This document shows, one piece after another, positions 4,989 through 29,014 of a stretch of 32,000 bases of DNA. The position numbers and the translations under genes were made by a program. Under the pieces are notes generated by a model. That model saw only the letters and a list, made by a program, of their open reading frames with translations. It was not told the origin of the DNA and searched no databases. This stretch comes from Pyrodictium delaneyi. Its GTDB lineage: Archaea > Thermoproteota > Thermoprotei_A > Sulfolobales > Pyrodictiaceae. Location of the stretch: assembly GCF_001412615.1 (NCBI RefSeq), contig NZ_CP013011.1, positions 1,500,001 to 1,532,000 on the forward strand. The letters run 5' to 3'. Each line of letters begins with the position of its first letter. Within the stretch, counting starts at the first letter, position 1.

Positions 4989-5008
4989 GACCCATGTTCT
5001 AATACACT

Positions 5009-5749: not shown

Positions 5750-5804
5750 GTTGTCCTTAGTCGTGTCGGCATCCGGGATAACGAAACACGCCGGGAGAGC
5801 TGAC

Positions 5805-6245: not shown

Positions 6246-6993
6246 ACGTTTTGGCGGAGACAAGCTCATCGCTTTAACTGACGGTAGGCCCGCAATTGCA
6301 CGGATTAGTGATGTTCTTCAAGCAGCTGGCGCAGAGCTTGTATATGTTGCAACACGGGAAGAGCAACGCTGTAAGATATACACGGATATCGCTAATTTAG
6401 ATGGCTGCATATATGACCCAGACTGGCTTGCATGTGGAGGACCAGCAGCTGCCTTAACGGGATTAGAGTCCCTTCAAGCCCGTGTACTACTAGTAACTCC
6501 AGGAGATATGCCATGGATAACACCAGACGTATTGATTAGACTAGAGGCCTTTATGGAACAGACCAAGGCCGAGGCTGCACTACCAATGCATAGTGGCGGT
6601 TTTCTTGAGACACTAGTAGCCACAATACGTTGGAGCCTTGTGGAAAGATTACCGAAGATACTTGTTCAGCTTTGCAATTTACGAGGAGAACTGAGAGCTA
6701 GTGATCCTTATCGAGCTTCAACGAGACTTACACTTGTTGGCTCGGGACTCCTTACATGGAATCCGATAGTATTTTCCCACATTAATACCCGCGAGCGCCT
6801 ACAAACCCGTGAACCAAAGAATAACCTTGGACCGAAAGACATACTGATTACGGAGCCCCATTTAGATCCATTTGCGCCAAGAGACCAACTATGTCTTAGG
6901 CTAGCACGAGAAAGAAACGAATATCACAAGCTTGGGATAATTCACTTGGAAAGACAGGCATGGAAGGACTTTCTTATGCTTTGTAAACAGTGA
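6208..6993 (+). CDS. mobA: Molybdenum cofactor guanylyltransferase (MobA) with a C-terminal extension
   Basis: N-terminal [20 protein letters not shown] matches the LAGGxxxRxGxDK nucleotide-binding signature. PGDMPWI matches the MobA DxP-type block. It overlaps ribK by 38 nt. At 261 aa it is about 60 aa longer than typical MobA. Confidence 0.75.
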
Positions 6994-7035
6994 GTTATAA
7001 CTTTATACGCTATGACACATCAGCTACTTAATAGT

Positions 7036-7099
7036 ATATTGTACAGTTATTATTAACAATATTATATAATTCGAAATATTGTAAAAAGTATAGTATTGT
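7036..7099. repeat. Phased ATATTGT motif array: direct 7036-7042, inverted 7056-7062, direct 7076-7082, variant GTATTGT 7093-7099
   Basis: Read directly from the sequence. The first three copies start exactly 20 bp apart and form ATATTGT-N13-ACAATAT-N13-ATATTGT. Confidence 0.5.
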
Positions 7100-7194
7100 C
7101 TATTATTCATAAATTTATCCTTATCACCATTAATCTATTTGAACACGCGTTATCGAGCAACCATAATTTTATCTAGCTATAGATTAATAAATAA

Positions 7195-7219
7195 TCATGA
7201 TAATTTTTAATTATGATGA
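7195..7219. promoter_or_regulatory. Imperfect palindrome TCATGATAATT-TTT-AATTATGATGA just upstream of the fdnG SD
   Basis: 11-nt arms with one mismatch, separated by TTT, ending 6 nt before GGAGG. It could be an operator or an mRNA-leader hairpin. Confidence 0.35.
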
Positions 7220-7238
7220 ATGATGGAGGCTCTGCCGA

Positions 7239-10200
7239 ATGCCGCCACAACGTAAAAGCAAGCCCGATTTGAATAGACGCTCGTTCCTCAAAGCAACAAC
7301 ATTGATGACTGCACTGGCTATGCTGCCAAGCAGTGCTAGAAGAGCACTTGGCTATACTCCGCCAAAGGAGTATATGCTCGGCGAGATAGGCAATAAGAGT
7401 CTCTATGAGACAGTTGAAATCCGCGGTGTATGCACATACTGTAGCGTTGGTTGCGGAATCATATTCTACAAGCAAGCCAATAAGGTAGTGTACCAGGAAG
7501 GCGATCCAGACAATCCTCTTAACGAGGGCAAGCTCTGTATAAAAGGCAAAGCTTCCATACAGCTGTTCGGCGCCCACAATCCTCTACGTGCCCGTACACC
7601 CCTTATCCGCGTAAATCCCAAGCCCAAGCCCGAGGAGATACTAGAAGCCAGGGACTCCAACGAGCTCATGAAGGTCCTGGAGAAGTATAAGCCAGTCTGG
7701 AAGCCTGTAACCTGGGAAGAGGCCTTCGAATACGTAATGAAGAAGATGAGAGAGATTCTCGAAGCCAATGCTGATGCTGTTAGAGTATACCACCCCTATG
7801 ACGGTAAGATATGTGATAGCAGGAAGGGCTGCTACTTCCGCTTCGGCAACAAGTACCCTGTAATGATAATAGCCGGCGCAAAGATGCTCAACGAGGAAGC
7901 ATACCTCATAAGGAAGATATCAATGCTTATAGGATGCAACAACATAGACCATGATGCGCGGCGTTGTCACTCCACTACAGTGGCCGGCCTAGCTGGCACA
8001 GTTGGCTTCGGCGCACAGACCCAGAGCTTCCCCGACACCCAGTATATCAGCGTCTACCTCATCCTGGGCGGGAACCCTGCCGAGGCCCACCCCGTCTCAA
8101 TGAGGCACGTCATGAAGGGCATCAACCGCGGCACACTAACACTAGTAGTGGTGGACCCGAAGTATGGGCGCACTGCATCCAAGGCCCATATATTCGCATT
8201 CCACCGCCCCGGCACAGACATACCCATAATGTACTACATCCTACACTACGCGTTCTTCGAGCGCAACCCGCCGGTAGACCGGCTCGACACCTTCCGCGAG
8301 TACGCTAAGAGGTTCAACATAGACATAGCTGAGATCGAGGAGATAAAGGACATAGCCAAGAGGTTCACTGCCGAAGAGGTCTCGAGGATAACTGGTGTAC
8401 CGGTCGAGAAGCTTCGCGAGATAGCCCGGCTCTTCGTCGAGAACAGCGGAGTAACCACCGGGTTCAAGAGGTTCGCCTCGATAGAGTGGGCTATGGGGCT
8501 CACTCAGCACCACGTAGGCACACAGAATACCCGCCTCGCCGCCCTGGTTCAGCTAGTCCTGGGCAATCTAGGCTTCCCAGGAGGCGGCCTCAACCCCTAC
8601 CGTGGTCACAGTAATGTGCAAGGCACAACTGACCTATGTATACTAAGCCACATATTCCCAGGCTACATCAAGATCCCGACCAATAGTAAGCAGATCCGCG
8701 CCTACCAGGAGTGGAAGCTGAAGGGCTTCCCCGACGCCTTCAACTGGCGCCCCAGCATGAACACTTGTAAGGCGCTCGGCCTGAAGTGCAGCGATTGCGA
8801 CGATAACGGCGACAACTGCAAGCTAACAGTAAACAGTGGGGCGCTACTCTGGGCATGGTGGTTCATGAACTGGCGCCGCTACGAGCTAGCCATGGGTATC
8901 TTCGTCGGCACGGATCCCGAGGATAAGCCGTGGGACGAGAACAGCGTCGTGATAAGCGATCTACCATTCAACAAGGGCTACACCGAGAACAACTGGTGGA
9001 TGGGCGTATTACTGCCCGACGACCCGAGGACAAAGAAGATCGGCGGAAAGATAGAGGCCATGTGGCTGTTCGGCGAGAACATAGCCATTAGCGACGCTGA
9101 CTCTAAGATAACCATGGCGGCTCTCGCAGCGCTAAAACTCCTAGTAGTGTCCGACATATTCATAACAGAGACCGCATGGTTCGCCGATGTATTCCTCCCG
9201 GCCGCGTTCCAGTACGAGAAGGAGGGCAGCATAACTAACAGCAACCGCTGGATACAGTGGCAGCACCGCGTGGTAGAGCCACCCGGCGATGCCAGGGCAG
9301 ACCTATGGGTGATGTACAAGTTCTGGGACTACATGAGGCGTAGTGGCCTAGTAAAGCTGCCGAGCGAGGAGTACGGTAAGAAGATCGAGCGTGTAGTAGT
9401 GAAGCACCCCGAGGCCGATACGCTGGTCGAGCTCTACCGGAGGAAGATAGAGCCCTACATGAACTATGGCAGCGGTAGATTCCCGTGGACCGACTACCGG
9501 GAAGTAGACCCGGTGCTCGTCTACAAGGAGATCGATGCTGCTGTAGACCTCTACTATGGCCAGTACGACTGGGCCCACGACAAGATACTAGCCATGAGGA
9601 GGATATCCGCGCCACGTGTACCCGGCCAGCCTGACGGTCTGCTCGACAGTGGCACCCTCGAGCACCCTGGCGGGAAGGCCCCGCTGAGGCTCTTCAAGGA
9701 CTGGGGCTGGAGCTGGCCCAGGAACGTCAGGATACTCTACAACCTGTACACATTGGAGAAGACATTCGGCCGCAAGGACAGCTTCACCTTTGAGCCAGGC
9801 AAATGGACCGTAGGCCCAGAGCTAGACGGCAAGACCGTGGAGATCACTGGCGAGGCCGGCGAAATGATAGATGCTAAAACAAAGATGCCTAGACCGGCCT
9901 TCATACCGGGCCACAACTTCGTGATAGGCAAGTACTATAAGCGCGCCTGGACATGCCTCACAGAGAAGTGCAGCCAGAAGACCACGGCCGACATATTCAC
10001 TGGCGCTGCCTACGCCGAAGACATGATACGCTACGGCAAGACCGTCGGCAAGATAGTGTTCTGGAAGCCTGGCGGCGGCTACGAGATAAAGACTGTCGAG
10101 GAGCTCGACATAAGGTGTCCGATGTGCGAGAGCTTCTACTATGACCCCGAGCTGATACTAGACTACGGCAAGGCCGTGTTCTATAAGCCGTACTTCAAGG

Positions 10201-11033
10201 GCACCAAGACCATTAACGGAAAGACGATAGTCTACAAGGACTGGAAGGAATGGCGCCCGGTGCACGACAAGTTCGTAAAAGAATTCACAGCCTGCATTGG
10301 AGGCAATCCTGAGAACTACAAGAAGTGTGTCAAGGAGTTCCTAGACAAGTATGGCGAGTGGTATGCTATAACTGGACCTGACGGCAAGGTATGGGCCTAT
10401 AGTATCGACTACCCGTTCCACTTCGAGCCAGTTGAAAGCCCGAGCATAGAGATGGCAACCAAGTACCCAGCACTAGCCTGGAGGAGGATAGAGAACCTGT
10501 TCTACATAGAGCCACCAGAGCAGATGCCGGAACTATACAAGGCCGTGGTAGCGACCTATGAAGAGCTGAAGAAGTACGCGCCTAGCGATGCAGAAGTGGT
10601 AGTGGTTACCGAGAACCGTCTTGAGGAGCACTTCCACACCGGTATCATGACGCGCAACGTGCCGTACCTTGCCGAGACGCTGCCAGAGCCCTTCGCAGAG
10701 ATCCCAGTCGAGCTAGCCGAAAAGCTGGGTATAAAGAGTGGCGACATAGTAGAGCTGGGCAACAATAGGAACAAGATCTACGTGCGAGCACTGGTAACAC
10801 ACCGCATGCCTAAGCTGAGGATAGGCAACAAGGAGGTCTACGTGATCAACGTGCCGTGGAGCTGGGGTTGGAGCGGCGCCCACAACAGCTTCGACGTAGC
10901 CAACACGATATCAATACTAGTAATGGACATAGTTACTACGATGCAGGAGACGAAGGCGTTCCTAGCATGGGTGAAGAAGGCCAGCCCAGACAAGTACACT
11001 TACCAGGCTAAACCCCGCATACAAGTGTTCTAA
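7239..11033 (+). CDS. fdnG: Formate dehydrogenase-N-type molybdopterin catalytic subunit (Cys-type, Tat-exported), unusually long at 1264 aa
   Basis: Twin-arginine motif NRRSFLK (7272-7292). [4Fe-4S] motif CTYCSVGCG...CIKGK. Active-site block IDHDARRCHSTTVAGL aligns with E. coli FdnG VDNQARVUHGPTVASL, with Cys243 (TGT, 7965-7967) in place of Sec, followed by His244. Further matching blocks: GGNPAEAHP, VVDPKYGRTAS, GLTQHHVGTQN, NPYRGHSNVQGTTD (catalytic Arg), EKEGSITNSNRWIQW and ENRLEEHFHTG. Confidence 0.9.
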   Translation: MPPQRKSKPDLNRRSFLKATTLMTALAMLPSSARRALGYTPPKEYMLGEIGNKSLYETVEIRGVCTYCSVGCGIIFYKQANKVVYQEGDPDNPLNEGKLCIKGKASIQLFGAHNPLRARTPLIRVNPKPKPEEILEARDSNELMKVLEKYKPVWKPVTWEEAFEYVMKKMREILEANADAVRVYHPYDGKICDSRKGCYFRFGNKYPVMIIAGAKMLNEEAYLIRKISMLIGCNNIDHDARRCHSTTVAGLAGTVGFGAQTQSFPDTQYISVYLILGGNPAEAHPVSMRHVMKGINRGTLTLVVVDPKYGRTASKAHIFAFHRPGTDIPIMYYILHYAFFERNPPVDRLDTFREYAKRFNIDIAEIEEIKDIAKRFTAEEVSRITGVPVEKLREIARLFVENSGVTTGFKRFASIEWAMGLTQHHVGTQNTRLAALVQLVLGNLGFPGGGLNPYRGHSNVQGTTDLCILSHIFPGYIKIPTNSKQIRAYQEWKLKGFPDAFNWRPSMNTCKALGLKCSDCDDNGDNCKLTVNSGALLWAWWFMNWRRYELAMGIFVGTDPEDKPWDENSVVISDLPFNKGYTENNWWMGVLLPDDPRTKKIGGKIEAMWLFGENIAISDADSKITMAALAALKLLVVSDIFITETAWFADVFLPAAFQYEKEGSITNSNRWIQWQHRVVEPPGDARADLWVMYKFWDYMRRSGLVKLPSEEYGKKIERVVVKHPEADTLVELYRRKIEPYMNYGSGRFPWTDYREVDPVLVYKEIDAAVDLYYGQYDWAHDKILAMRRISAPRVPGQPDGLLDSGTLEHPGGKAPLRLFKDWGWSWPRNVRILYNLYTLEKTFGRKDSFTFEPGKWTVGPELDGKTVEITGEAGEMIDAKTKMPRPAFIPGHNFVIGKYYKRAWTCLTEKCSQKTTADIFTGAAYAEDMIRYGKTVGKIVFWKPGGGYEIKTVEELDIRCPMCESFYYDPELILDYGKAVFYKPYFKGTKTINGKTIVYKDWKEWRPVHDKFVKEFTACIGGNPENYKKCVKEFLDKYGEWYAITGPDGKVWAYSIDYPFHFEPVESPSIEMATKYPALAWRRIENLFYIEPPEQMPELYKAVVATYEELKKYAPSDAEVVVVTENRLEEHFHTGIMTRNVPYLAETLPEPFAEIPVELAEKLGIKSGDIVELGNNRNKIYVRALVTHRMPKLRIGNKEVYVINVPWSWGWSGAHNSFDVANTISILVMDIVTTMQETKAFLAWVKKASPDKYTYQAKPRIQVF

Positions 11034-11068
11034 CCAATTTTCAACACCATGGGGCAGGGTGATCACGC

Positions 11069-11863
11069 ATGACCGAGTACGGGATAGTATTCAACCTCGA
11101 TACATGTATAGGTTGCAGGGCATGCCAGACAGCGTGTAAGGTCTGGAACGGGCTGAAAGCTGAAGAGACTAGCTTCAACCCTGAGGGCTACACCAACCCA
11201 GTAGACCTATCGCCGAACACCTGGATGATAATGGAGTTCCTAGAGGGGTTGATGGGCGATTCACCATTCTGGCTCTTCAAGAAGCGCCAGTGCATGCACT
11301 GTAGCGAGGCACCTTGCGCCAAGGCGTGCCCGGTCAACGCCATAGAGGTGCATCCCGAGGGCGCCGTGGTAATCCGTCCCGACAAGTGCATAGGTTGCCG
11401 CTACTGTATCGAGGCCTGCCCCTACGATGTGCCACGCTACGACCCGATATCGAACAAGGTATACAAGTGTACATTCTGTATCGACCGTGTACAGAATGGC
11501 CTCGCACCCGCATGTGTCGAGGCCTGCCCAACTGATGCACTAGAGTTCGGCCCCTGGGAGGAACTGCTCCAGAAGTACCGCGCCGCCGGCTACGAGGTGT
11601 ACGGAGACAACGTTAACGATTACGTCGGACGCACTCACTACCTCTACGTGACGAGGAAGTTCCGGAACTTTGGAGCCGAGGAGGGCAAGAAGTGGTACGA
11701 GGCTATTGGCTTCCCAGAAAACCCGACAGGAGCACTACCACTCATTGAAGCCGGACGCAACGTTGGTGTAGGTCTTGCAGCGCTAGCAGCTGTAGGTGCA
11801 GTAGCTCACGCCATCTACTGGAGGGCTAAGAGGATCGAGGAGAGGAACAAGACCGAGAAATGA
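11069..11863 (+). CDS. fdnH: Formate dehydrogenase iron-sulfur (beta) subunit, four [4Fe-4S] motifs and a C-terminal TM anchor
   Basis: Cys motifs CIGCRACQTAC, CMHCSEAPCAKACP, CIGCRYCIEACP and CTFCIDR...ACVEACP. C-terminal helix VGVGLAALAAVGAVAHAIYW. SD GGTGATC lies at 11058-11064. Confidence 0.88.
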   Translation: MTEYGIVFNLDTCIGCRACQTACKVWNGLKAEETSFNPEGYTNPVDLSPNTWMIMEFLEGLMGDSPFWLFKKRQCMHCSEAPCAKACPVNAIEVHPEGAVVIRPDKCIGCRYCIEACPYDVPRYDPISNKVYKCTFCIDRVQNGLAPACVEACPTDALEFGPWEELLQKYRAAGYEVYGDNVNDYVGRTHYLYVTRKFRNFGAEEGKKWYEAIGFPENPTGALPLIEAGRNVGVGLAALAAVGAVAHAIYWRAKRIEERNKTEK

Positions 11864-11900
11864 CGTGTTTTACTTACAATCATGAAGGGGGTGTTACATA

Positions 11901-12629
11901 ATGGGTAAGGAGGTTAAACTCTTCAGTGAACTAGAGATATGGGCACATAAACACGCTATACACTTCGCAGCCGCCCTAATACTAACGGGGCTGATAGTCT
12001 CCGCCAACAGCCTGCCAGACCCCCTAGGAGGGTTCTTCGAGTGGCTAGCATATACACTAGGTACACCAGCATCCTACTTTGCTGAAGCCCTCGGGCTTTC
12101 ACCGCTCGAGCAGAGCTATAGCGCCTATAGCCTCGGTGTACAAGTAGCTAGGATAGTCCACCGGCTCGCAGGAATAGGAATGGCGTTCATAGGCCTAGTG
12201 TGGCTCCTAGGCGAGCTACCACGGGCTAGGAAGTGGCAGATATGGCCCGAAGGCGGTCTAGGAGCTGCCGTCAAGAATCTGATAGACTACTATGTAGGAA
12301 AGAAGGAACCACGGTTCGGCAAGTATAACCTCGGCCAGAAACTGTGGATAATAGGTGTAGTCGTTGGCTTTACGCTACTCTTCATAACAGGCATAATAAT
12401 GTGGTTCCGCGACAGTTTCAGCCAAAGCGTGGTAAACACTGCTCATACGCTACACACATGGCTAGCATGGATAAGTATTGCTGGACTAATAATCCACATA
12501 TATCTCGCCATAGGAATACCAGAGCATAGGCCAATGCTGAGAGCCATGTTCCGCACCGGTACTGCACCAGAAGAGTTTGTGAAGAAGCATCACCCATTAT
12601 ACTATGAGAAAATAAGAAGCGAAGACTAA
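11901..12629 (+). CDS. fdnI: Formate dehydrogenase cytochrome b (gamma) membrane subunit
   Basis: 242 aa with 4-5 predicted TM helices. Conserved-looking His are at helix ends (HKHAIHF, RIVHRL, HTLHTW, IIHIYL), as in the FdnI/cytochrome b561 family. SD GGGGGTG lies at 11887-11893. The gene position after fdnH also fits. Confidence 0.8.
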   Translation: MGKEVKLFSELEIWAHKHAIHFAAALILTGLIVSANSLPDPLGGFFEWLAYTLGTPASYFAEALGLSPLEQSYSAYSLGVQVARIVHRLAGIGMAFIGLVWLLGELPRARKWQIWPEGGLGAAVKNLIDYYVGKKEPRFGKYNLGQKLWIIGVVVGFTLLFITGIIMWFRDSFSQSVVNTAHTLHTWLAWISIAGLIIHIYLAIGIPEHRPMLRAMFRTGTAPEEFVKKHHPLYYEKIRSED

Positions 12630-19729: not shown

Positions 19730-19886
19730 GGCTTACCTTTACTTGTTCATCTCGTTCTCCCTTTGGTACTGTTACATTGCCTCCTAAGGGCTTGATATGT
19801 ACAATCCATGTCACGCAGTCTACAGACTACCTGGGTCCATTACATCCGCTACATTGTAGCACGTGCTCAACAATGCATCTCGTAAT

Positions 19887-20285
19887 TCAGCGTTTTTCTG
19901 CTGCAAGTGGATCACCTATTAGGCTGGAACGGTTTGCTGTAGCCGGCGGCACGATGTTACTCGTTTTGTAGGCGTGTCGTGGACAGATGTCTACGCAGTG
20001 GTAACAGAACATACAGAGATCGTAATGCACTACCGGATATCGACGTGGCCTCTTAGCATTTTCCTGGCCTGGTAGTAGCTTCATCTCTATCGCTCCCGGC
20101 GGGCACTCTATAGCGCATAGACTACAGCCTATACACTTCTCCACATCAACCACGTGGAGGCCGCGATACCCACCACTAGGAGTTGGGCCGGTTTTTAGGC
20201 CGTATTCTATTGTGGCAGGCCGCCTAGCCAAGTTTGATACGAGTTCACTTAGCATGATAAGTATACGCGGCTTCACAACTTCCAC
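19887..20285 (-). CDS. nuoI: 2x[4Fe-4S] ferredoxin subunit of the membrane-bound hydrogenase/complex-I-like enzyme (NuoI/MbhN-like)
   Basis: CIGCSLCAIECPPGAI and CMFCYHCVDICPRHA, separated by a spacer as in NuoI. It is the last gene of the operon. It has a GTG start. Confidence 0.85.
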   Translation of the reverse strand: MEVVKPRILIMLSELVSNLARRPATIEYGLKTGPTPSGGYRGLHVVDVEKCIGCSLCAIECPPGAIEMKLLPGQENAKRPRRYPVVHYDLCMFCYHCVDICPRHAYKTSNIVPPATANRSSLIGDPLAAEKR

Positions 20286-20290
20286 CCCTT

Positions 20291-21469
20291 CTATTGATCT
20301 GCCCGCCGACGAGCTAGTTGACGTAAGTTCTCTAGACGTTCGCGCCCAGTACGTTCATCAACTACTATAACGCGCTCCATGCATGATATGCAGGGATCAA
20401 GACTTGCTAGTATGACCGGTATATCCGCCAATGTGGCACCTTGGTAGGCTACGAGACTGTTCAGTATGTTGGGGATACTCGGCGTCCTTATCTTTACTCT
20501 ATAAGGCTTAGTGCCGCCCCGACTAACAACATGGTATAGGAGTTCACCACGTGGAGCCTCAACTCGTGATATTGCCTCACCCTCACGGAACCGGCGAGGC
20601 GGAGTCTTCAGACTGTTAATTGGACCGCTTGGCAGTTTTTCTAGCACTTGACGTATAATGTTTATAGACTCTAACGCCTCCTCGAACCGGACCAGCATAC
20701 GGGCGAGTGCATCGCCCTCACTACGTCTAATTACTTGGAAGTCTAGCTCCCCGTACCAAGCATAAGGATCATCGCGTCTGACATCGATATCTACGCCGGA
20801 GCCACGAGCTGTTGGCCCGACAAGTCCATGACTTACGGCCACACTGTACGGTATTACCCCTATGCCTTCAAGCCTACGGCGGAGCAACCTATCGCTTGTA
20901 TAGACTTCCATATAGTATTTTATCCGCTGTTCGAGAATATCCATGCTACGTCTTATCTTCTCTGCTACTTCAGGACTTAGGTCTCGACGAACGCCTCCTG
21001 GCCATACATAATCGGCTATGACTCGGTTTCCTGTGAGCAGCTCCTTTAGGTGCATTACCTTCTCGCGATCCCTCATTATCAGCATGAAGAGGCTCTCAAA
21101 TCCAGCTATCTCTGCAACCACGGCTGCTAGGAGCATGTGACTATGAAGCCTCTCGAGCTCCATTGCTAGGACTCGGAGAGCTTGAGCGCGAGGCGGCGGC
21201 TCGATACCATTTATCTCTTCGATGGCCTGGACATAGCAGTTAGAATGCATCATGTTGCATATACCGCAGACACGTGTCACTATATAGAGGGTTTTTAGGA
21301 ACGTATTGCTCTCAGCGAGCTTCTCTATCCCACGATGGTTATAGCCCGTAACTACCTCTACCCCGACTACGTCTTCACCGTCAACGCGTACACGGAGCAT
21401 AATGGGTTCGTGTAGTGCAGGATGCTGAGGCCCAATAGACACTTCTATTACCGGCATCCCCGTTATCAC
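20291..21469 (-). CDS. nuoD: Group-4 [NiFe]-hydrogenase large subunit (NuoD/MbhL/EchE-like) with an intact Ni-Fe ligand set
   Basis: L1 motif RVCGICNMMH (Cys68 at 21268-21266, Cys71 at 21259-21257). L2 motif DPCISCMER (Cys360 at 20392-20390, Cys363 at 20383-20381). A 26-aa tail VIVVDERTG... follows it. Also GPQHPALHEP and EAPRGEL blocks. GTGA overlap with the upstream gene. Confidence 0.9.
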   Translation of the reverse strand: MITGMPVIEVSIGPQHPALHEPIMLRVRVDGEDVVGVEVVTGYNHRGIEKLAESNTFLKTLYIVTRVCGICNMMHSNCYVQAIEEINGIEPPPRAQALRVLAMELERLHSHMLLAAVVAEIAGFESLFMLIMRDREKVMHLKELLTGNRVIADYVWPGGVRRDLSPEVAEKIRRSMDILEQRIKYYMEVYTSDRLLRRRLEGIGVIPYSVAVSHGLVGPTARGSGVDIDVRRDDPYAWYGELDFQVIRRSEGDALARMLVRFEEALESINIIRQVLEKLPSGPINSLKTPPRRFREGEAISRVEAPRGELLYHVVSRGGTKPYRVKIRTPSIPNILNSLVAYQGATLADIPVILASLDPCISCMERVIVVDERTGRERLENLRQLARRRADQ

Positions 21470-21906
21470 CTCTTATTCCAGTCCTTGCGTAACGGATATT
21501 CTCCAGCTACATCTGGCGGTGTGAAGAACCCTAAGCGGAGACTCTCATTACCCTCAAAGACTACGCCAAAGAGGTCGTAGACCTCTTGTTCATAGGGCAC
21601 TGCAGCGGGGAGTAACAGTGCCAAGCTTGGTGCTCTTGGCTGGCTTCGCGGTACCCGCGTCTTTAGCGTGAGTAGGCTCTTCTCCGGGATAATCCAGAAC
21701 ACATAGTCTAGCTCTATACTGTCCTCTTCAGGGAGATCTATGGCAGTTATCGCTGAGAGGTAAACTCCACGAGGGTAGGCCTCTAGCAAGCTTTTAACTA
21801 CTCCTGGCAGTTTCCAGGGATCATCAATACGTACTTCTAGACGTCGTTGCTTCTTTTCCACAATCTCTACTTTACTGTTCTTCAGCCACAGTTTTAGCTG
21901 CTTCAA
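21466..21906 (-). CDS. nuoC: NuoC/MbhK-like 30-kDa-type subunit
   Basis: 146 aa. YEQEVYDLFGVVFEGN and a R(K)DW-type C-terminus (YPLRKDW) are typical of NuoC/HycE-N/MbhK. It sits between the small and large subunits. Confidence 0.8.
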   Translation of the reverse strand: MKQLKLWLKNSKVEIVEKKQRRLEVRIDDPWKLPGVVKSLLEAYPRGVYLSAITAIDLPEEDSIELDYVFWIIPEKSLLTLKTRVPRSQPRAPSLALLLPAAVPYEQEVYDLFGVVFEGNESLRLGFFTPPDVAGEYPLRKDWNKR

Positions 21907-22405
21907 TTCTGTCAGCCTCCTCTCGGATACTCTTAAGGAGCCTAACTATGGCCTGGAGTATCGCGTCAGGACGCGGCGGGCATCCGGGAATATAGAGATC
22001 CACCGGCACGACGTTGTCGGCTCCACCAACTACACTGTAGCTATTGCGGAACACATTGCCAGAGATAGCACATGTACCAACTGCAACCACGTGTTTTGGG
22101 TCAGGTGTCTGTTCGTAGAGACGACGAAGTCTCTCAGCAGACTTCTTGGTTAGTGCACCCGTCACAATGATTATGTCGGCATGCCGAGGGTTCGGGGCCA
22201 GTCTTATACCGAAGCGTTCTGGATCGTAGAGGGGTGTTAGGGCCGCAAGAACCTCTATGTCACAGCCGTTGCATGCGCCGGTGTTAAAGTGGAGTAACCA
22301 GGGTGAACGTGAGAGCATTCTTAAGGTGAAAGAACTCCCACGATGCTTCACATTTTGCAAGGGGATATACGCCTCCGCCAAATAGAGTATATAGCTACGA
22401 AACAT
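21872..22405 (-). CDS. nuoB: Group-4 hydrogenase small subunit (NuoB/MbhJ-like), [4Fe-4S] N2-type cluster
   Basis: FNTGACNGCDIE (hydrogenase-type CxxC rather than the complex-I CC), GTCAISG and IPGCPPRP. The start is either 22405 (a TATA-like box lies ~32 nt upstream) or the internal ATG at 22318 (MLSRSPWLLHFNTG). Confidence 0.85.
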   Translation of the reverse strand: MFRSYILYLAEAYIPLQNVKHRGSSFTLRMLSRSPWLLHFNTGACNGCDIEVLAALTPLYDPERFGIRLAPNPRHADIIIVTGALTKKSAERLRRLYEQTPDPKHVVAVGTCAISGNVFRNSYSVVGGADNVVPVDLYIPGCPPRPDAILQAIVRLLKSIREEADRIEAAKTVAEEQ

Positions 22406-22436
22406 AGTTGATTAGGGTTACCCCGTAGAAGCCGGG

Positions 22437-22444
22437 ATAAAGAA
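22437..22444 (-). promoter_or_regulatory. TATA-like element (TTCTTTAT on the minus strand) in the 74-nt gap between the membrane-arm genes and the B-C-D-I module
   Basis: This is the only sizeable gap inside the 11-gene cluster. The T/A element sits about 32 nt upstream of the ATG at 22405, which fits a short-leader internal promoter. Confidence 0.25.
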
Positions 22445-22479
22445 CCCGCTGCCACAGCATACACGATTACACACCCCCG

Positions 22480-23880
22480 CTAGCGGATTAGACTGACTAT
22501 ACTGTCCACGATGGGGCCCGGCAATACACCTAGAGCTATTGCGGCCGCTGCTAGGATGAGGAGTGGTACAAGAAGCCTAGACGGAGCCTCAGAAGGCAGT
22601 GTACGAGGAACCGTTACCGACGGATGCCAGAATACTCGTAGCCAGAACCTAAGCGCATAGGCTGCAGAGGATAATACAGCAAGTGCTAGCGCAGCGACTG
22701 CTGCTATGCCGTAGACCCGCCCTACCCCTAGGACTATGAGTAGCTCACCTGGGAACATTGCAAAGGGCGGTGCCCCGGCCAGACTCATGGCTGCTACGAA
22801 GGCTGCGAAGGCTGTGACGGGCATGCTGCGGGCGAAAACTCCCATGCTGCGTATGTCGTCGCTTCCGCTCTGCTTCTCGAGCACTCCTGCTACGAGGAAG
22901 AAGAGGGGCTTTACGATGCCGTGTGCCAGGGCTGCTAGTACTCCACCAGCGGCCGCCAGGGGATGGCCAGCGGCAAGCCCGGCGTAGATTATGCCGGAGT
23001 GCCCAATGCTGCTGTAGGAGGCTATGAAGCCTAACCGGTTAGCTGAGAGGGCTCGGAGGGCTCCCACTATTGCCGAGGTTATGCCCAGCCACATCGCGGC
23101 CTCTAGCATGGCTGTGGTTTGGTGGGGCCAGTGGAATCCTGTCGTGAACCTGTACATTCCGTAGGCGCCGATGCTTGTGACCACGCCTGCGAGTAAGCCT
23201 GCCGCGAATGGGGGCACTGAGGTGTAGGTACGTGGGAGCCATGTGTGGAATGGGAAGACACCGAGTTTTATTGCAAAAGCTATAAGTGCCAATGGTAGCG
23301 CTATTGTTGATAGGCTAGCATCCACGACATTGCCTCCGAAGACCGGGGCATTGGCTGCTAGTAGGGCGCCTACCGCTACGAGAAGTAGCAGGGAGCCTGC
23401 ATGCATGTATATGAAGAATTCTGGGGCTCTTCTAGGGCTCCAGAGCCAAACTAGCACCGTGGACACTATGAGTACTAGTTCCCAGAACACATAGAAGAGC
23501 GGCAAGCTATAGGCGTAGACGAGCCCAATAACCGAAGCATGTATAGCAGTTACAACTATCTCAAAGACTGCCTCCCCTCCTCTACATGTTACGCCAGCTC
23601 TGCCTGCATATACTATGACTGTTATCGCTACTAGGGCAGAGAGGGCTGCGAAGAGCTTCGAGACAGTGTCTAGCCCCATACACACTGGAGCGTTGACGAC
23701 AGCTAACCATGAACGACATACAGCGTCGCCGTTGGCAAGCAGCGTAATAATAGCGGACACTGTTATCGAGATTATTGAGGCTGCCCTCCTACCAGCTAGG
23801 ACTGCTGCAGCACCTAATCCAAGCACTATTAGCGACGTCGCATACGCTACTGGTACGCCGAGCACGTTAGCCACCTCCAA
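22480..23880 (-). CDS. nuoN: Antiporter-like subunit (NuoN/NuoM/MrpD family)
   Basis: 466 aa, about 14 TM helices. FAIKLGVFPFHTWLPRTY matches the K..g..P.H.WLPdA signature. It overlaps the upstream gene by 14 nt. Confidence 0.8.
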   Translation of the reverse strand: MEVANVLGVPVAYATSLIVLGLGAAAVLAGRRAASIISITVSAIITLLANGDAVCRSWLAVVNAPVCMGLDTVSKLFAALSALVAITVIVYAGRAGVTCRGGEAVFEIVVTAIHASVIGLVYAYSLPLFYVFWELVLIVSTVLVWLWSPRRAPEFFIYMHAGSLLLLVAVGALLAANAPVFGGNVVDASLSTIALPLALIAFAIKLGVFPFHTWLPRTYTSVPPFAAGLLAGVVTSIGAYGMYRFTTGFHWPHQTTAMLEAAMWLGITSAIVGALRALSANRLGFIASYSSIGHSGIIYAGLAAGHPLAAAGGVLAALAHGIVKPLFFLVAGVLEKQSGSDDIRSMGVFARSMPVTAFAAFVAAMSLAGAPPFAMFPGELLIVLGVGRVYGIAAVAALALAVLSSAAYALRFWLRVFWHPSVTVPRTLPSEAPSRLLVPLLILAAAAIALGVLPGPIVDSIVSLIR

Positions 23881-25168
23881 GCATGGGGACTAGGCCGGGA
23901 TAGACTCCCAGCACGAGTAGAAGCAGCGAATACGCAAGGAGAGGGAGCCAGGGGACGTTGACGCCATGGGATACTTGATATCCACCCATTATCAAGTAAC
24001 GGAAGATGTAGACCGCTGATACTAGGAAGAAGATTGCCGATACTACTGCTAGCCAAGTGTATCCAGCTGCAGCGAATGCTGCTACTACTGAGAGTTTCGC
24101 GGCAAACCCATAGAGTGGCGGCGTCCCGGCTAGGCTGAGTAACCCCGTCACTTGTGCTATTTTGCCGATGCTTGTCTTTTCGTAACGGTGAGCAGTTATT
24201 ACCAGGGCTATGGACATGTTGCTAGCTGTTATGAAGTATATCGGGACTAGAGGGTCGCGTATACCAGATAGCGCGTAGACGACTGCGAGCAGGACAGTGT
24301 AGCCAGCGTCGCTCACCATACTGTAGCCTATCATGCGACGTAGCTCCTTCTGAGCTAGAGCAGAGAATTCGCCCACAACCATGCTCGCCATTGCTAGGAG
24401 GACAAGGAGCGCCGCGATTATTGGGCCGAGCAAGACTCCCGAGGAGGCTATCAGCTTGAAGAACACCAATAATACTGGAGCATCTACAAGTAGGATGGCA
24501 GTAACCACTCCGAGCAAGTGAGCGCCTTGGACTACATCGGGCAGCCACATATAGAATGGTGCAAGTCCGGCCTCAAGCGCCAGCCCCGCTGTGAGGAAGA
24601 CGAGGCCAAGGAGCACAGGGAGAGTCGCCCATGACACCCCTCCCAGGGGTGCTTCGGTAAAGCTGTGAAAGCCCTGACTGTAGAGTAGCCCCATGCCAAC
24701 AATTATGAGGGCTGTCGCCAGTATCGACGAGTAAAGGTACTTCACTGCAACTTCTCCACTACGCCGGCCTCCAAGACTATAGAGACCGGCTAAGGCGGCG
24801 GCAGCCGTCTCTATACCGGCGAGCAAGGTTAGTAGGCTAGCCGAGTAGAGCACGAGGAACCCGCCTAGAACGGCTAAGATAACTAGCGGTGCCCTCACCT
24901 TATCTAGCTCATCTACTAGACTGGCTAGGGCTAGTATCTCTGCCAGTAGGAGGAGTACCGCCATAGCATTATACTCCGTCGTCACGTATAGGATGTTTAG
25001 GCCAGCATACCTTACCATACCCTGGGGCAATACCCAAACAATTACCATCATGTAGATCATTGTGGCTAGTGTCGTGGCTGCTGCTGCACGGCGCGGAAGG
25101 ACAGCAGCGATAGCTGCGGCGGCTAGAGGAACGCCGGCTACCAGGGTTAGTAGCTGGTATACGTCCAT
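23867..25168 (-). CDS. nuoM: Antiporter-like subunit (NuoM/NuoN/MrpD family), divergent at conserved charged residues
   Basis: 433 aa and polytopic. LAGIETAAA is the TM5 Glu block. LALEAGLAPFYMWLPDVVQGA aligns with the NuoN block FK...PFH.W.PDVYQGA, but has Glu199 and Tyr206 where Lys and His are expected. Confidence 0.75.
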   Translation of the reverse strand: MDVYQLLTLVAGVPLAAAAIAAVLPRRAAAATTLATMIYMMVIVWVLPQGMVRYAGLNILYVTTEYNAMAVLLLLAEILALASLVDELDKVRAPLVILAVLGGFLVLYSASLLTLLAGIETAAAALAGLYSLGGRRSGEVAVKYLYSSILATALIIVGMGLLYSQGFHSFTEAPLGGVSWATLPVLLGLVFLTAGLALEAGLAPFYMWLPDVVQGAHLLGVVTAILLVDAPVLLVFFKLIASSGVLLGPIIAALLVLLAMASMVVGEFSALAQKELRRMIGYSMVSDAGYTVLLAVVYALSGIRDPLVPIYFITASNMSIALVITAHRYEKTSIGKIAQVTGLLSLAGTPPLYGFAAKLSVVAAFAAAGYTWLAVVSAIFFLVSAVYIFRYLIMGGYQVSHGVNVPWLPLLAYSLLLLVLGVYPGLVPMLGGG

Positions 25169-25170
25169 GG

Positions 25171-27018
25171 CTAACCACCCATACTTACCAGGGCGACTAT
25201 GATGAGTAGAACGAGACCGGCTAGATAGACTGCATAGTAGTAGCTCAGCTTACCACCGTGTAAGCTGCGTAGCATGCCTCCAAGCTGTAACGAGAACGAA
25301 GTAGCAGCATCAACAACGGCGTCAACGATTTCTACGAGACCTCTAGCCGATAGATTCACAGCAAACAGTATCGAGGGCGCTATTATCCTTGTGTAGATCC
25401 TGTCTATGTAGAAGCCCTCTAGTGCTGCACGCTGTAGAGCCGCTAGCCTAAGGGTTGCCACTTTACGGGTGTACAACAAGAATGCCGTCCCAAGACCAGC
25501 AGCTGCAGCAGCGAGGCTAGCAGCTACCGCTAATGGCCCAGCTTCGCTCGGCTGGAAGGGTGGTACGACTAGGAGGGGCGAGACTAGAGTCATCACTATC
25601 AAGAATAGAAGTGGAGCAGCCATAAATGCTGGTATCTCCTCTACCCTTATCTCCTTGTACCTTGGCTCTGCGAAGACGAGATAGTAGACGAGCTTCACCG
25701 AATAGAACGCCGTGGCCACCGACGCTGCTAGGAGAACTAGTGCCACGAGAGGCTCAGTTGATAAGGCTACTCCTATTATCGCCTCTTTACTCCATGCACC
25801 GTTGAAAGGCGGTATACCGGCTAGCGCTGCCGCCCCTGCTACTAGGCTTGCAGCGAGGAGTGGACTACGCCGGGCAGCACCTGCCACATAGCGCATATCC
25901 CTTGCAATCTCTGGACCAAAGATGGGCTCAAACTCGTGTATAACGACACCTACGGCTAGGAATAGAAGGGCCTTGAACACGGCGTGACTAGCTACATGCT
26001 CTAACACTGCTACGAGACCCTCTACGCCTACTCTCCACGTGAGCCCTAACGCTGCAAACATGAAACCTAGCTGGCTTATAGTCGAGTAGGCTAGCAGCCT
26101 CTTTGCGTCATACTGTGCTGCTGCCGAGACGGCTGCATAAAGGGCCGTAGCTGCACCCACAAGCACTACCAGCTGCATGAAGCTCTGGGGCAGAGCGACG
26201 CTACCGCCTATGAGGGCAAGAGAGGCAATCCTTAGAACAAGGTAGATACCCGCCTTGACCATTGTGGCCGCGTGTATCAGCGCCGAGACAGGAGTAGGGC
26301 CCTCCATGGCGTCGGGGAGCCAGACATGCAGCGGCAGCTGCGCACTCTTCGCCACCGCCCCGACAAAGGCTAGCAAGAGGAACAACTTTAGAGCAGCCAG
26401 ACCAGATGCTGCGAGTACGGGGTACTCGACCGAGCCGAGAATAGTATAGACATAGACTATGCCTACTAGGAGGGCTGTGTCGCCTATCCTTGTGGTCAGG
26501 AAAGCCTTGACGCCAGCTGCTGAGGCGCGTGGCGAGTAGTAATGTGCTATCAATGCAAAGCTACAGAGCCCGACCATCTCCCAGAACATGTAAAGGGCTA
26601 CTAGGCTACCAGTCAGCACAAGACCCTCCATTGCGCCGAGGAAGAGTACCAGAAGGCTATAGTACCGCGAGTACCCCGGATCCTCAGCCATGTAGCTGTA
26701 CGAGTACAATATCACTAGGAGGCCCACGAGGCCTACTATCAGCGAGAAGAGCGCCGCGAGCCCGTCGATATAGAGCGAGAGGCTAAACCCACCACCCGGA
26801 ACCAAGGGGAGACTAGGCCCTTCTATATAGAAGGCTGTTTCGGGAGCCTTGCTGTAGATTAGCAGTGCGAGCATCAGTACAGTAGAGCCCGTGGCTAGCG
26901 CGAGGCCCCATGCAGCGCGGCGGCCGAGGAAGCGTCCCGCCAGGGCTACGACTGGGGATGCTGCGAGAGGTGTCAGTATAATCGCGTAGCCTAGAGTAGT
27001 CAAGCTAGCCGTTTCCAT
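25171..27018 (-). CDS. nuoL: NuoL/MrpA-like antiporter subunit with a C-terminal lateral-helix extension
   Basis: 615 aa. AVAKSAQLPLHVWLPDAMEGPTPVSALIHAATMVKAGIYLVLR is the canonical NuoL/MrpA block. The C-terminal GFYIDRIY...VEIVDAVVDAA amphipathic stretch plus a final TM helix resembles the NuoL HL helix and TM16. Confidence 0.88.
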   Translation of the reverse strand: METASLTTLGYAIILTPLAASPVVALAGRFLGRRAAWGLALATGSTVLMLALLIYSKAPETAFYIEGPSLPLVPGGGFSLSLYIDGLAALFSLIVGLVGLLVILYSYSYMAEDPGYSRYYSLLVLFLGAMEGLVLTGSLVALYMFWEMVGLCSFALIAHYYSPRASAAGVKAFLTTRIGDTALLVGIVYVYTILGSVEYPVLAASGLAALKLFLLLAFVGAVAKSAQLPLHVWLPDAMEGPTPVSALIHAATMVKAGIYLVLRIASLALIGGSVALPQSFMQLVVLVGAATALYAAVSAAAQYDAKRLLAYSTISQLGFMFAALGLTWRVGVEGLVAVLEHVASHAVFKALLFLAVGVVIHEFEPIFGPEIARDMRYVAGAARRSPLLAASLVAGAAALAGIPPFNGAWSKEAIIGVALSTEPLVALVLLAASVATAFYSVKLVYYLVFAEPRYKEIRVEEIPAFMAAPLLFLIVMTLVSPLLVVPPFQPSEAGPLAVAASLAAAAAGLGTAFLLYTRKVATLRLAALQRAALEGFYIDRIYTRIIAPSILFAVNLSARGLVEIVDAVVDAATSFSLQLGGMLRSLHGGKLSYYYAVYLAGLVLLIIVALVSMGG

Positions 27019-27021
27019 AGT

Positions 27022-27315
27022 CTACCCCCTTAGTTCGTCTAACTCGTCCACACTCCTAGCCCCATGGAGCCTTGAGGCGCGGAGGGCGAGCGCAGCTGCT
27101 AGGGCCATTATACCGGTGTCGAGAACTAGTATGAAGAGGTAGAAGCCTAGGCTACCACCCCACATGGCGAGGGATGCTGCTGCAGAAGCCGACACAAGTT
27201 CGAGGCCGACCAGTACGCGGAGAAAGTTAGAGTACCGAGTGAGCATGTAGAGGCCTGCAGAGGCTATAGCTGCTAGTGCTATTGAGTAGAATATGCTAGT
27301 CTCCACCGTCTTCAC
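27022..27315 (-). CDS. nuoK: NuoK-like small membrane subunit
   Basis: 97 aa with three TM helices. LVGLELVSASAAASLA resembles the NuoK L.slEim.na block with its membrane Glu. It sits between the J-like and L-like genes. Confidence 0.7.
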   Translation of the reverse strand: MKTVETSIFYSIALAAIASAGLYMLTRYSNFLRVLVGLELVSASAAASLAMWGGSLGFYLFILVLDTGIMALAAALALRASRLHGARSVDELDELRG

Positions 27316-27730
27316 CTCCCGCCACGACTCTTAACGCTAGCAACACTGAGGCTAGCGGAGCAGATGCCAGGGCTACTGCTAGAGGAGCCCATTCCTCTGC
27401 ACTGAGCTCCCGGGGCTGCTGTATATGAGAGCCAGCGATGGCTAGGGCTACGAGCACCACGAGTGCACCTATAGCCCCCATACCCGGGACGACGCCCCGC
27501 TTCGAGCCGCCCAACTCGGGAGCCAGGAAGCCTGCAGCTGCTAGAAACCCGGCTGCGAGTGAGAGCTGTACAACGGCTGCAACAACTTCGCCCATATCAA
27601 TAAACATTAACGCGAGGAGCACCAGAGCTGCGGTGGAGGAGAGTAACACTCGCTCGTCTCGCCCCGTGGTGGCAGCATAGAACGCCGCTACAGCCGCCGC
27701 AGCTGCTAGTACTCCTGCGAAGATACTCAC
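27296..27730 (-). CDS. nuoJ: NuoJ-like membrane subunit
   Basis: 144 aa and hydrophobic. GEVVAAVVQLSLAAGFL loosely matches the NuoJ F.a..Q..vY.GA block. The call rests largely on the canonical H-J-K-L gene order. Confidence 0.55.
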   Translation of the reverse strand: MSIFAGVLAAAAAVAAFYAATTGRDERVLLSSTAALVLLALMFIDMGEVVAAVVQLSLAAGFLAAAGFLAPELGGSKRGVVPGMGAIGALVVLVALAIAGSHIQQPRELSAEEWAPLAVALASAPLASVLLALRVVAGGEDGGD

Positions 27731-27737
27731 TCTGTTA

Positions 27738-28694
27738 TCACCCCTTAACTATTAGTGCTAGAGCCGCAATTATGAAGGAGCATGGCACTATGGCAGTCCA
27801 TGAGGCTCTCCCCACGTCTACGAGCCGTAGCCTCGGAGCTGCTGCATCTACTAGTGTAGCAGCAATGGCAACTGCTAGCCCTGTCCCCAGGAGCGCAAGG
27901 AGCCCTGCTATGCCGCTCCAGGGCGGCGCGAGGAACAGCGTCGTGTAGTAGTATAGCGAGACAGTCTCGTGGATACGATGCGTCAAGTGTGCAAACGCGA
28001 GGCGACGACCACTCATATCCGCCATTAAGCCACCTGCAATCTCGGTCTCAGCCTCTGCCACGCTAAACGGGTCCTTGCCTGCCTCGGCTAGGATCAGCAC
28101 GAAGCCTAGCACAGCCCCCGCTAGCCACAACGGCAAGAACACCGGCTCAGCAGCTAGGCTGCTCCACAGTGTCCTCCTTATCTCCGCGAGCGAGAGCGAG
28201 CCTGTAACAGCATAGACTATACCAAGCAGGGAGAGGAGAGCAACTTCATAGCTTGCTAGGAGCCCTAGCAGACGGAACCCACCAATGACACTATAAGGGC
28301 TATGAGTCGAGAAGGCTGCCAGGTAGAGGAGGCCAAGCGAGAGGGTTAAACACGCCGCAACGAGCACTGCATCGCCATGAAAGCTAAAGCCTATAGCACC
28401 GCTCCAGGGGATGAAAAGCGAGGCAAACGCGGCTAGGCTTAGACTCCATATCAGCGCTGCTGGCACTGCAACCGGGTCCTGGCTCCGGGGCGCAAGATCC
28501 TCCTTACCCAGCAGCTTCAAGAGGTCTATGAGCGGCTGTAGTAAACCTCCTAATCCAGTATAGCTAGGACCTATACGGCTCTGCAGCCTGGCTACAACTT
28601 TACGCTCAACAGCTTCGAGCAACAGCGCTAGCGCTACCACGAACGTTAGGCCAGGGTATACAGTAGCCTTCACGACCAGGTCTAGGGGATTCAT
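27738..28694 (-). CDS. nuoH: NuoH/MbhM-like membrane subunit
   Basis: ERKVVARLQSRIGPSYTGLGGLLQPLIDLLKLLGKED matches the NuoH ERK..a..Q.R.GPN..G..GLLQP.aD..KL..KE block. PFSVAEAETEIAGG matches PFD.pEaEsEL. ATGA overlap with the upstream gene. Confidence 0.88.
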   Translation of the reverse strand: MNPLDLVVKATVYPGLTFVVALALLLEAVERKVVARLQSRIGPSYTGLGGLLQPLIDLLKLLGKEDLAPRSQDPVAVPAALIWSLSLAAFASLFIPWSGAIGFSFHGDAVLVAACLTLSLGLLYLAAFSTHSPYSVIGGFRLLGLLASYEVALLSLLGIVYAVTGSLSLAEIRRTLWSSLAAEPVFLPLWLAGAVLGFVLILAEAGKDPFSVAEAETEIAGGLMADMSGRRLAFAHLTHRIHETVSLYYYTTLFLAPPWSGIAGLLALLGTGLAVAIAATLVDAAAPRLRLVDVGRASWTAIVPCSFIIAALALIVKG

Positions 28695-29014
28695 AACGTG
28701 TGTCTCCTCTTGAGTATACTACGGGCAGTTATGGCCGAGAAGACGCCGGCAACCATAAAGAGGAGAGCCGATACGTTGCTAGAACCACCAGCTAGTAGTA
28801 CTGCTACGGGCACTGCTTCCACCGCTGCAAAGAGGAGTAGCAGCCAAGGGTATGGCGGCGATGCTTCTCGAAGAGGCTCTGTCTTTTCTCCACACATGTA
28901 GGGCTCTACTGCTTCTCCTTCTCTACGTGGAGCTGGTGCCAAACTTTTTGATGCAAGATAGTAGCTCGCCGATACAACCATTATTAGTACAAATGCAATG
29001 ACCAGCTCTATCAT
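28691..29014 (-). CDS. nuoA: NuoA-like small membrane subunit; first gene of the operon
   Basis: 107 aa with three TM helices. EPYMCGEKTEP matches the NuoA PYECG..P loop, followed by LLLFAAVEAVPV (compare F.lFDvE). Confidence 0.65.
   Translation of the reverse strand: MIELVIAFVLIMVVSASYYLASKSLAPAPRREGEAVEPYMCGEKTEPLREASPPYPWLLLLFAAVEAVPVAVLLAGGSSNVSALLFMVAGVFSAITARSILKRRHTL

Follow-up and report, generated by a model that had tools for sequence, protein, structure and literature searches.

A 32,000-nucleotide stretch of the genome of Pyrodictium delaneyi (positions 1,500,001 to 1,532,000 of contig NZ_CP013011.1; the whole of it is called the window here) carries on its minus strand, from 29014 to 19887, eleven co-directional open reading frames (ORFs) that, judging from their sequences, probably encode an 11-subunit, complex-I-like, membrane-bound group 4g [NiFe] hydrogenase whose membrane arm was exchanged in the course of evolution and whose two gene blocks still meet at a visible seam. 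The gene order, obtained from the ORF listing and from NCBIfam and Protein Data Bank (PDB) searches, is A-H-J-K-L-N-M, a spacer, and B-C-D-I. The spacer would mark the seam between two evolutionary units. One, B-C-D-I, recurs as an unbroken block at the head of the Mrp/Mbh-type clusters in Desulfurococcales and Sulfolobales, its closest relatives; the other is a membrane arm such as occurs in Hfo-like and Nuo operons with canonical order. The complex as such had been predicted before: Loh et al. 2021 (PMC7886697) describe Hfo as an Fpo-like 11-subunit group 4g [NiFe] hydrogenase and list a predicted Hfo-like complex in P. delaneyi, with an 'almost identical' organisation.

The eleven genes, recognised from the ORF listing and family scans, and the spacer that separates the two blocks are the following.

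28691..29014, minus strand: NuoA-like subunit, 107 aa, first gene of the operon; without Pfam match, identified by a profile match to NuoA
27738..28694, minus strand: NuoH/MbhM-like subunit, 318 aa; PF00146, E 3e-56
27296..27730, minus strand: putative NuoJ-like small membrane subunit, 144 aa; from its position between H and K and its hydrophobicity
27022..27315, minus strand: NuoK-like subunit, 97 aa; PF00420, E 9e-9
25171..27018, minus strand: NuoL-type antiporter-like subunit, 615 aa, full length with C-terminal extension; PF00662 and PF00361
23867..25168, minus strand: NuoN/ND2-type antiporter-like subunit, 433 aa; TIGR01770 (NuoN) 124 bits versus 29 bits for the NuoM model
22480..23880, minus strand: NuoM/ND4-type antiporter-like subunit, 466 aa; TIGR01972 (NuoM) 206 bits
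22361..22479, minus strand: spacer between the membrane-arm and hydrogenase blocks; 119 nt if B starts at TTG 22360, 74 nt if it starts at ATG 22405
21872..22360, minus strand: hydrogenase small subunit, NuoB-like, 162 aa from TTG 22360; PF01058, E 8e-36
21466..21906, minus strand: NuoC-like subunit, 146 aa; PF00329, E 6e-21
20291..21469, minus strand: [NiFe]-hydrogenase large subunit, NuoD-like, 392 aa; PF00346 and PF00374
19887..20285, minus strand: NuoI-like 2x[4Fe-4S] ferredoxin subunit, 132 aa, last gene of the operon; two CxxCxxCxxxCP motifs in the translation

Homologues of all eleven core subunits are present, ten of them recognised by Pfam, NCBIfam or hhalign and J by its position and one marginal match (one of seven J-like orthologues matches PF00499, E 0.015; hhalign of J gave no confirmation). 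For A, a profile of seven orthologues was matched to canonical NuoA with an hhalign probability of 96% and E 1.5e-9, and the PYxCGE loop motif is invariant. The best PDB matches of H are MbhM (78 bits) and ND1 (70 bits), that of D is MbhL (251 bits), and the NuoI-like orthologues bear Fer4 Pfam domains. Among the antiporter-like subunits, the NCBIfam NuoL model aligns with residues 9-611 of the 615-aa protein (423 bits), every top PDB match of the 433-aa protein is a NuoN/ND2, and the top matches of the 466-aa protein are NuoM/ND4. An earlier note on this DNA had recognised the module-wise layout, but its order, A-H-J-K-L-M-N followed by B-C-D-I, had the labels of M and N swapped, as both NCBIfam and PDB give N and then M. 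The Mrp-type module families MrpE, MrpF, MrpG, MnhB and MbhD have no match among the eleven ORFs of 19887-29014, and Rfam and tRNA scans of the window returned no matches. The junctions measure, in order, -4, +7, -20, +3, +2, -14, +74, -35, -4 and +5 nt (+74 with B read from ATG 22405); the ORF coordinates thus agree with the earlier description of 22406-22479 as the sole real gap, all remaining junctions being overlaps or gaps of 7 nt or less. The large subunit matches, with 100% identity, a protein of P. delaneyi that bears the annotation 'NADH-ubiquinone oxidoreductase chain D'. Because the locus tags of a proteomics supplement fit the gene order of the window (Pyrde_1506, RuBisCO; 1511-1513, molybdenum enzyme; 1515, FdhE; 1518, NADH oxidase; 1535, GDPD), the operon can be equated with Pyrde_1522-1532.

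The hydrogenase nature of the B-C-D-I block is indicated by the large subunit, D, which has the L1 motif RVCGICNMMH, with CGICNMMH at residues 68-75 fitting C[GS][ILV]C[AGNS]xxH, and the L2 motif DPCISCMER at residues 358-366, fitting [DE][PL]Cx[AGST]Cx[DE][RL] (L2 as defined in PMC7886697). The four cysteines concerned (C68, C71 and the L2 pair) are invariant in 17 diverse homologues. The small subunit, B, carries GACNGCDIE, that is, the hydrogenase-type CxxC, through which the proximal cluster is bound, in place of the tandem CC that serves cluster N2 in complex I. In the comparison set, CxxC was found in B in 120 of 120 loci with a Cys-containing D, and tandem CC only in four loci with a Cys-less D. 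The C-terminal extension of D reaches approximately 26 residues past the L2 motif, and in three relatives, namely, L081 (P. abyssi, 11549-12022), L082 and L090, a gene for a HycI-like endopeptidase follows I. The site where these relatives have the HycI-like gene corresponds in the window to the interval 19730-19886, between I and an acyl-CoA dehydrogenase-like gene. Judging from homology and from inferences in the literature, the enzyme most likely links the interconversion of ferredoxin and H2 to ion translocation; an obligate hydrogenotroph could operate it backwards, with the ion gradient driving the reduction of ferredoxin with H2.

For the comparison of gene order, genome contigs were searched with a profile of the D alignment, which yielded at least 80 comparison loci, the closest genomes not being among them. 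The A-H-J-K-L-N-M, spacer, B-C-D-I layout recurs in at least eight further loci, with identity of D down to 60%: L092, a metagenomic contig (95% identical at the nucleotide level); L081 from P. abyssi (D 89% identical); L087, a Logan contig (81%); L090 (72%); L082 and L083/84, from two metagenome-assembled genomes (MAGs; 67-68%); and the more distant L091 (60%). The non-canonical, module-sorted order is therefore conserved across a clade comprising L081, L082, L083/84, L087, L090, L091 and L092. Nor is this order common in ordinary archaeal complex I, since in the synteny comparison both the ordinary nuo cluster of the same genome (Pyrde_1472 A, 1475 D, 1476 H, 1477 I, 1479 K, 1480 M and 1481 L) and the nuo operon of MAG L089 keep the canonical order. 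Among the matches listed, the next-closest D proteins (56-62% identical), from MAGs of Sulfolobales and Desulfurococcales, Thermosphaera and Ignisphaera, are encoded in Mbh/Mrp-type clusters with the order B-C-D-I-MrpF-MrpG-MbhD-MnhB-MrpC-MnhE-MrpD-x-H. A canonical-order relative, L089a, is found in MAG L089, with the order HycI-A-B-C-D(NiFe)-H-I-J-K-L-N-M and an ordinary canonical-order nuo operon right after it. The two lie head to tail on the same strand at 4751-21905 of L089 (MAG GCA_964594835.1), the NiFe-type 11-gene operon next to the Cys-less nuo, and have the look of a tandem of hydrogenase and complex I paralogues. A leading membrane arm is no rarity as such, many group-4 clusters of bacteria being ordered L-L-L-...-B-C-D-H-I; what sets the present layout apart is an H placed with the arm and a B-C-D-I kept as a single block.

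A metagenome search with the H alignment gave, among the matches listed, only distant relatives of H, at most 37% identical. In three metagenome contigs (L093, L108 and L114), H is followed by small genes and three antiporter-like subunits, and no B-C-D-I was detected within 10 kb, so that a membrane arm seems to be encoded there on its own. The closest NuoH outside the window clade, among the matches listed, is 36% identical and resides in a Bathyarchaeota contig (L088, 3353-12878), in an A-B-C-D-H-I cluster in which D has a NiFe Pfam match. An FrhB/FdhB-like gene follows this cluster and J-K-L-M lie divergently upstream; L088 has the look of a cross between Fpo and Hfo, possibly with an input subunit of the F420 type.

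The histories of the two blocks were compared using neighbor-joining (NJ) trees with 200 bootstraps and quartet counts on larger alignments. In the NJ trees of both B and D, the window clade, L091, L085 and L007 join the Mbh-type clusters to the exclusion of L089a, the bathyarchaeal Hfo-type loci and the bacterial loci, with support of 100% for D and 79% for B; likewise, the rearranged type and the Mbh type together exclude L089a in 98% of the quartets and 100% of the replicates, for both proteins. The membrane arm is Nuo-type, consisting of NuoA, K, a full-length NuoL, N and M, and shares the L-N-M order with L089a, whereas Mbh-type relatives, such as L086, have MrpE/F/G/B and MbhD genes in place of this arm. 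The combination of Nuo-type gene content with B and D trees that join the Mbh type supports a mosaic origin, in which the membrane arm would have been exchanged within this hydrogenase lineage. The labels originally attached to the two modules do not hold: the hydrogenase module, thought to be 'Ech-type', has its closest relatives in the Mbh-like group 4g, and the 'Mrp/Nuo-type' membrane module is of the Nuo/Fpo type, without Mrp families. For H, the distances of 1.4-1.7 denote a saturated alignment, with means from the window clade of 1.46 to L089a, 1.41 to L091 and 1.70 to the Mbh type; the means thus lean towards L089a and L091 over the Mbh type. The H of L091 groups with that of L089a in 65% of the quartets and 81% of the bootstrap replicates. 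As a sign of an exchange, the H tree carries only moderate weight. Two other signals were discarded. The drop in identity to the Mbh type from D (62%) to H (32%) is not proof of incongruence, as L091, with the same gene order, shows 60% and 35%, and the difference between the blocks in GC content at third codon positions (0.55-0.59 versus 0.47-0.50) is inside the window range of 0.43-0.70 and was not counted as a sign of recent transfer.

The extent of the spacer depends on the start of the small subunit. The longest ORF of B is open up to ATG 22405 (21872-22405), but the equivalent of this ATG in P. abyssi opens an ORF of only 7 codons, whereas TTG 22360 has a homologous TTG-CAA in P. abyssi, and the gene call of L092 likewise gives a B of 162 aa and a gap of 118 nt. 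Hence, B most likely starts at the conserved TTG 22360 rather than at ATG 22405, which makes the spacer most likely 119 nt long (22361-22479), and database entries that use ATG 22405 would carry 15 spurious N-terminal residues, so that their start should probably be moved to TTG 22360. A start at 22318 is disfavoured because B orthologues are conserved for approximately 10 residues upstream of the internal Met M30 (…FTLRM…). Thus, of the gap given in the earlier note as 74 nt, or up to 161 nt with the start at 22318, the existence is upheld, and the length probably needs correction. The segment 22406-22479 is 88% identical to its counterpart in L092 and, given three 1-nt indels between the two, is taken to be non-coding. 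Although the sequences are unalignable between distant members, the spacer persists at the same junction, where it measures 57-160 nt (L081, L082, L083, L087, L091 and L092) and exceeds every other junction in seven of the eight further loci that share the layout; there, all other junctions are 15 nt or less except for one 98-nt gap in L083.

Archaeal promoters combine a TATA box with a BRE (B recognition element) about 26 nt upstream of the transcription start. Two elements in the spacer come into consideration.

22438..22445, minus strand: TATA-like TTCTTTAT, 32 nt before ATG 22405
22388..22393, minus strand: candidate TATA box TATATA, 28-33 nt upstream of TTG 22360

The first, singled out originally, is present at the position described but lacks conservation and statistical weight: 8-mers with at least seven of eight A/T number 119 in 9.5 kb of sense strand, and the element is interrupted in L092 (TTCTCTTAT) and replaced by GTCTTTCC in P. 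abyssi, so that it was rejected as a notable TATA box. As for the second, T[AT]TA[AT]A is matched only four times in the same 9.5 kb, this site included; L092 has the identical hexamer, and P. abyssi has TATAAC in its place. From these comparisons, TATATA at 22393-22388 appears to be a better promoter candidate than TTCTTTAT, suggestive but not significant. In the window, L092, L081 and L082, TATA-like elements precede the inferred starts by approximately 26-33 nt, and the same holds more loosely for L087 and L091; the upstream regions of the other window genes are too heterogeneous for a local promoter model. An internal promoter in the spacer is thus plausible, although we stop short of favouring it. 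In the proposed scheme, the spacer would retain translation-initiation signals and probably a TATA-type internal promoter approximately 30 nt upstream of the TTG, which would allow B-C-D-I to be made partly independently of the membrane arm.

Several observations weigh against a hydrogenase with an exchanged arm and a functional seam. The H quartets of the window clade are split, with 48% placing it with the Mbh type and 37% with L089a; clear incongruence is confined to gene content and to B and D, and the NJ trees do not fix the direction of the swap. Accordingly, the comparison of the H tree with those of B and D, along the lines of the NuoH/L and NuoB/D test suggested in the earlier note, sustains the proposal made there of two fused evolutionary modules as far as the B and D trees and the gene content are concerned, but not through H-tree incongruence of the window clade, for which the alignment is saturated. 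No trace of a HycI-like gene was found by tblastn anywhere in the 32-kb window, although D keeps its C-terminal extension; the gene is also absent from L092. None of Pyrde_1520-1529 is listed in the tandem mass tag (TMT) proteome tables examined, from nitrate- or ferrihydrite-grown cells, whereas ordinary Nuo subunits of Pyrde_1472-1481 are listed in the same tables; the hydrogenase may be silent under these conditions. The spacer is almost missing in two loci, L085, with a junction of 5 nt, and L090, which as called has an overlap, although a more plausible ATG start would leave approximately 65 nt. Conservation of TATATA rests on three close relatives, and with 41/43 identical positions the stretch does not significantly surpass synonymous sites. 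Finally, the sequence would fit one polycistronic transcript just as well.

This last point leads to the alternative that survives best, a possibility that we hold open with some doubt: the seam would be neutral, all eleven genes being transcribed from one promoter upstream of A, and the spacer would be a leftover of rearrangement that serves as the ribosome-binding region of B without separate control. The genes are co-directional and otherwise tightly packed or overlapping; a GGAGG is located 11 nt upstream of TTG 22360, and Shine-Dalgarno-like motifs, GAGGTG or GGAGGTGA, are present in the spacers of L082 and L083. The spacer also evolves about as fast as synonymous sites, with 88-91% identity between the window and L092 compared to 89-97% at third codon or synonymous positions of the genes, and its RNA fold is not unusual (z = 0.02); the loci with little or no spacer fit this alternative as well. 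Mere neutrality does not readily explain why a spacer of this size is kept at exactly this junction in lineages whose spacers are unalignable, when the other junctions are so short, or why TATA-like elements recur at similar distances from the inferred starts in four loci.

It is unlikely that a canonical Hfo-type operon, A-B-C-D-H-I-J-K-L-N-M, was simply rearranged internally and that lineages exchanged no modules. Such a reshuffling would draw on the existence of a canonical-order relative with the same L-N-M order, L089a, and the H quartets of the window clade do not reject common descent with Mbh-type H. Under this explanation, however, B and D should not group with the Mrp/Mbh type to the exclusion of L089a, B-C-D and I would have had to move separately, in at least two transpositions, and the product, a contiguous B-C-D-I, would happen to be exactly the unit of the Mbh-type relatives.

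Archaeal transcription termination uses oligo-T tracts, and at 22459-22447, on the sense strand right after the stop codon of M, a weak terminator-like hairpin has TTCTTTAT as its T-rich tail. Hairpin and tract together could then act as a leaky terminator or RNA-processing site that makes the B-C-D-I message less abundant than that of the membrane arm, or differently stable. We consider this improbable: terminator-like hits are at chance level (6 found versus 5.2 expected from shuffled sequence), the T tract is short and interrupted in L092, the GC-rich spacer of P. abyssi has no T tract at the equivalent place, and the fold score is the unremarkable one given above. An ordinary quinone-reducing 11-subunit complex I, as implied by the name 'NADH-ubiquinone oxidoreductase' in GenBank, UniProt and Demey et al. 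2017 and by a score of 358 bits for D with the NCBIfam NuoD model, just below its cutoff of 360, can hardly be credited for a protein that keeps four [NiFe] cysteines in L1 and L2 motifs and a C-terminal extension after L2, with a CxxC partner in B and protease genes adjoining in relatives, in a genome that already holds a separate canonical nuo cluster. The P. delaneyi genes of Pyrde_1522-1532 would be mis-annotated as NADH dehydrogenase.

Complex I is thought to have arisen from a soluble hydrogenase module and an antiporter-derived membrane module. If the locus encodes a group 4g hydrogenase with an exchanged arm, as we propose, this crenarchaeal clade would combine an intact [NiFe] site with a full complex-I-type arm while keeping the two modules as separate gene blocks. 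As its nearest hydrogenase-module relatives use an Mrp-type arm, the clade is convenient for asking whether Q- and P-modules are interchangeable and, similarly, whether they are expressed and assembled separately. More tentatively still, and with reservations greater than those attached to an internal promoter as such, the spacer might preserve, in working order, the promoter and leader of an ancestral B-C-D-I operon that once stood alone and was grafted onto a complex-I-type arm. If so, a single lineage of hydrogenase modules would power two different ion-pumping arms in Pyrodictiaceae and their Mbh-type cousins, and this natural pairing would offer a living test of the modular-assembly model of complex I evolution.

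Other parts of the window contain several further features. A 1264-aa molybdopterin oxidoreductase with iron-sulfur and cytochrome-b-like subunits is encoded at 7239-12629 (accessory genes up to 15437) and corresponds to Pyrde_1511-1513. These proteins, annotated as formate dehydrogenase, were reported to be 60- to 2700-fold more abundant on ferrihydrite, and a role as ferric reductase has been proposed for them; formate dehydrogenase activity was absent from cell extracts. The region 5000-8000 is low in GC (0.44-0.47 versus approximately 0.54 elsewhere), with a very AT-rich part upstream of the molybdenum enzyme gene, and a TTTTAATTA element and a GGAGG are located approximately 30 nt and 12 nt, respectively, before its ATG at 7239. 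At the edge of the window, 10-1347, lies a form III RuBisCO gene (Pyrde_1506), the product of which was detected in the published proteome.

Among known systems, the Hfo of Bathyarchaeia (group 4g-6; PMC7886697) has the same eleven families, the [NiFe] L1 and L2 motifs in D and, as here, no Mrp-type Na+ module. However, the Hfo/Fpo clusters are described with the order A-B-C-D-H-I-J-K-L-M-N (PMC7886697), compared to A-H-J-K-L-N-M, spacer, B-C-D-I in the window. In the NJ trees, B and D of the window are apart from the bathyarchaeal Hfo-type locus L088 and beside the Mbh-type clusters of Thermosphaera and Sulfolobales, whereas Loh et al. 2021 (PMC7886697) report a sister relationship to subgroup 4g-6. 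L089a (GCA_964594835.1) resembles the window in its subunit set, NiFe-type D, CxxC in B, a NuoL-type subunit that is 45% identical, and the L-N-M order, and a HycI gene adjoins it; it differs in its overall order, A-B-C-D-H-I-J-K-L-N-M with no internal spacer, and in a D that is only 50% identical and falls outside the clade formed by the window and the Mbh type.

The Mrp/Mbh-type group 4g hydrogenases (Thermosphaera type, 4g-5) are, among the matches listed, the closest outside the clade (D 56-62% and B 64-72% identical), and they share with the window the contiguous B-C-D-I and an H encoded with the membrane genes. They have MrpF-MrpG-MbhD-MnhB-MrpC-MnhE and a single MrpD-like subunit downstream of I, whereas the window has NuoA, the J-like subunit, K, L, N and M upstream of B and, accordingly, three antiporter-like subunits (L, N and M). 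The best PDB match of the window D, MbhL, belongs to the Mbh of P. furiosus (PDB 6CFW). The archaeal 11-subunit Nuo, represented by Pyrde_1472-1481, consists of homologous families, has the same predicted L-shape and, like the window complex, lacks NuoEFG, but differs in its Cys-less NuoD, tandem-CC NuoB and canonical order; every 11-subunit complex I known to Moparthi and Hagerhall 2011 was without the C-terminal Cys pair. In bacterial group-4 clusters of Omnitrophota, Planctomycetota and Chloroflexota, antiporter-like genes come first (L-L-L, small subunits, B-C-D-H-I), so that the arm precedes the hydrogenase as in the window, but H is located between D and I, D is 45-49% identical, and approximately 0.3-1.3 kb of extra small genes intervene between the blocks. 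The Ech type (group 4e), finally, has six subunits, with one antiporter-like EchA and H (EchB) among the hydrogenase genes, whereas the window locus has eleven, with H placed in the membrane arm.

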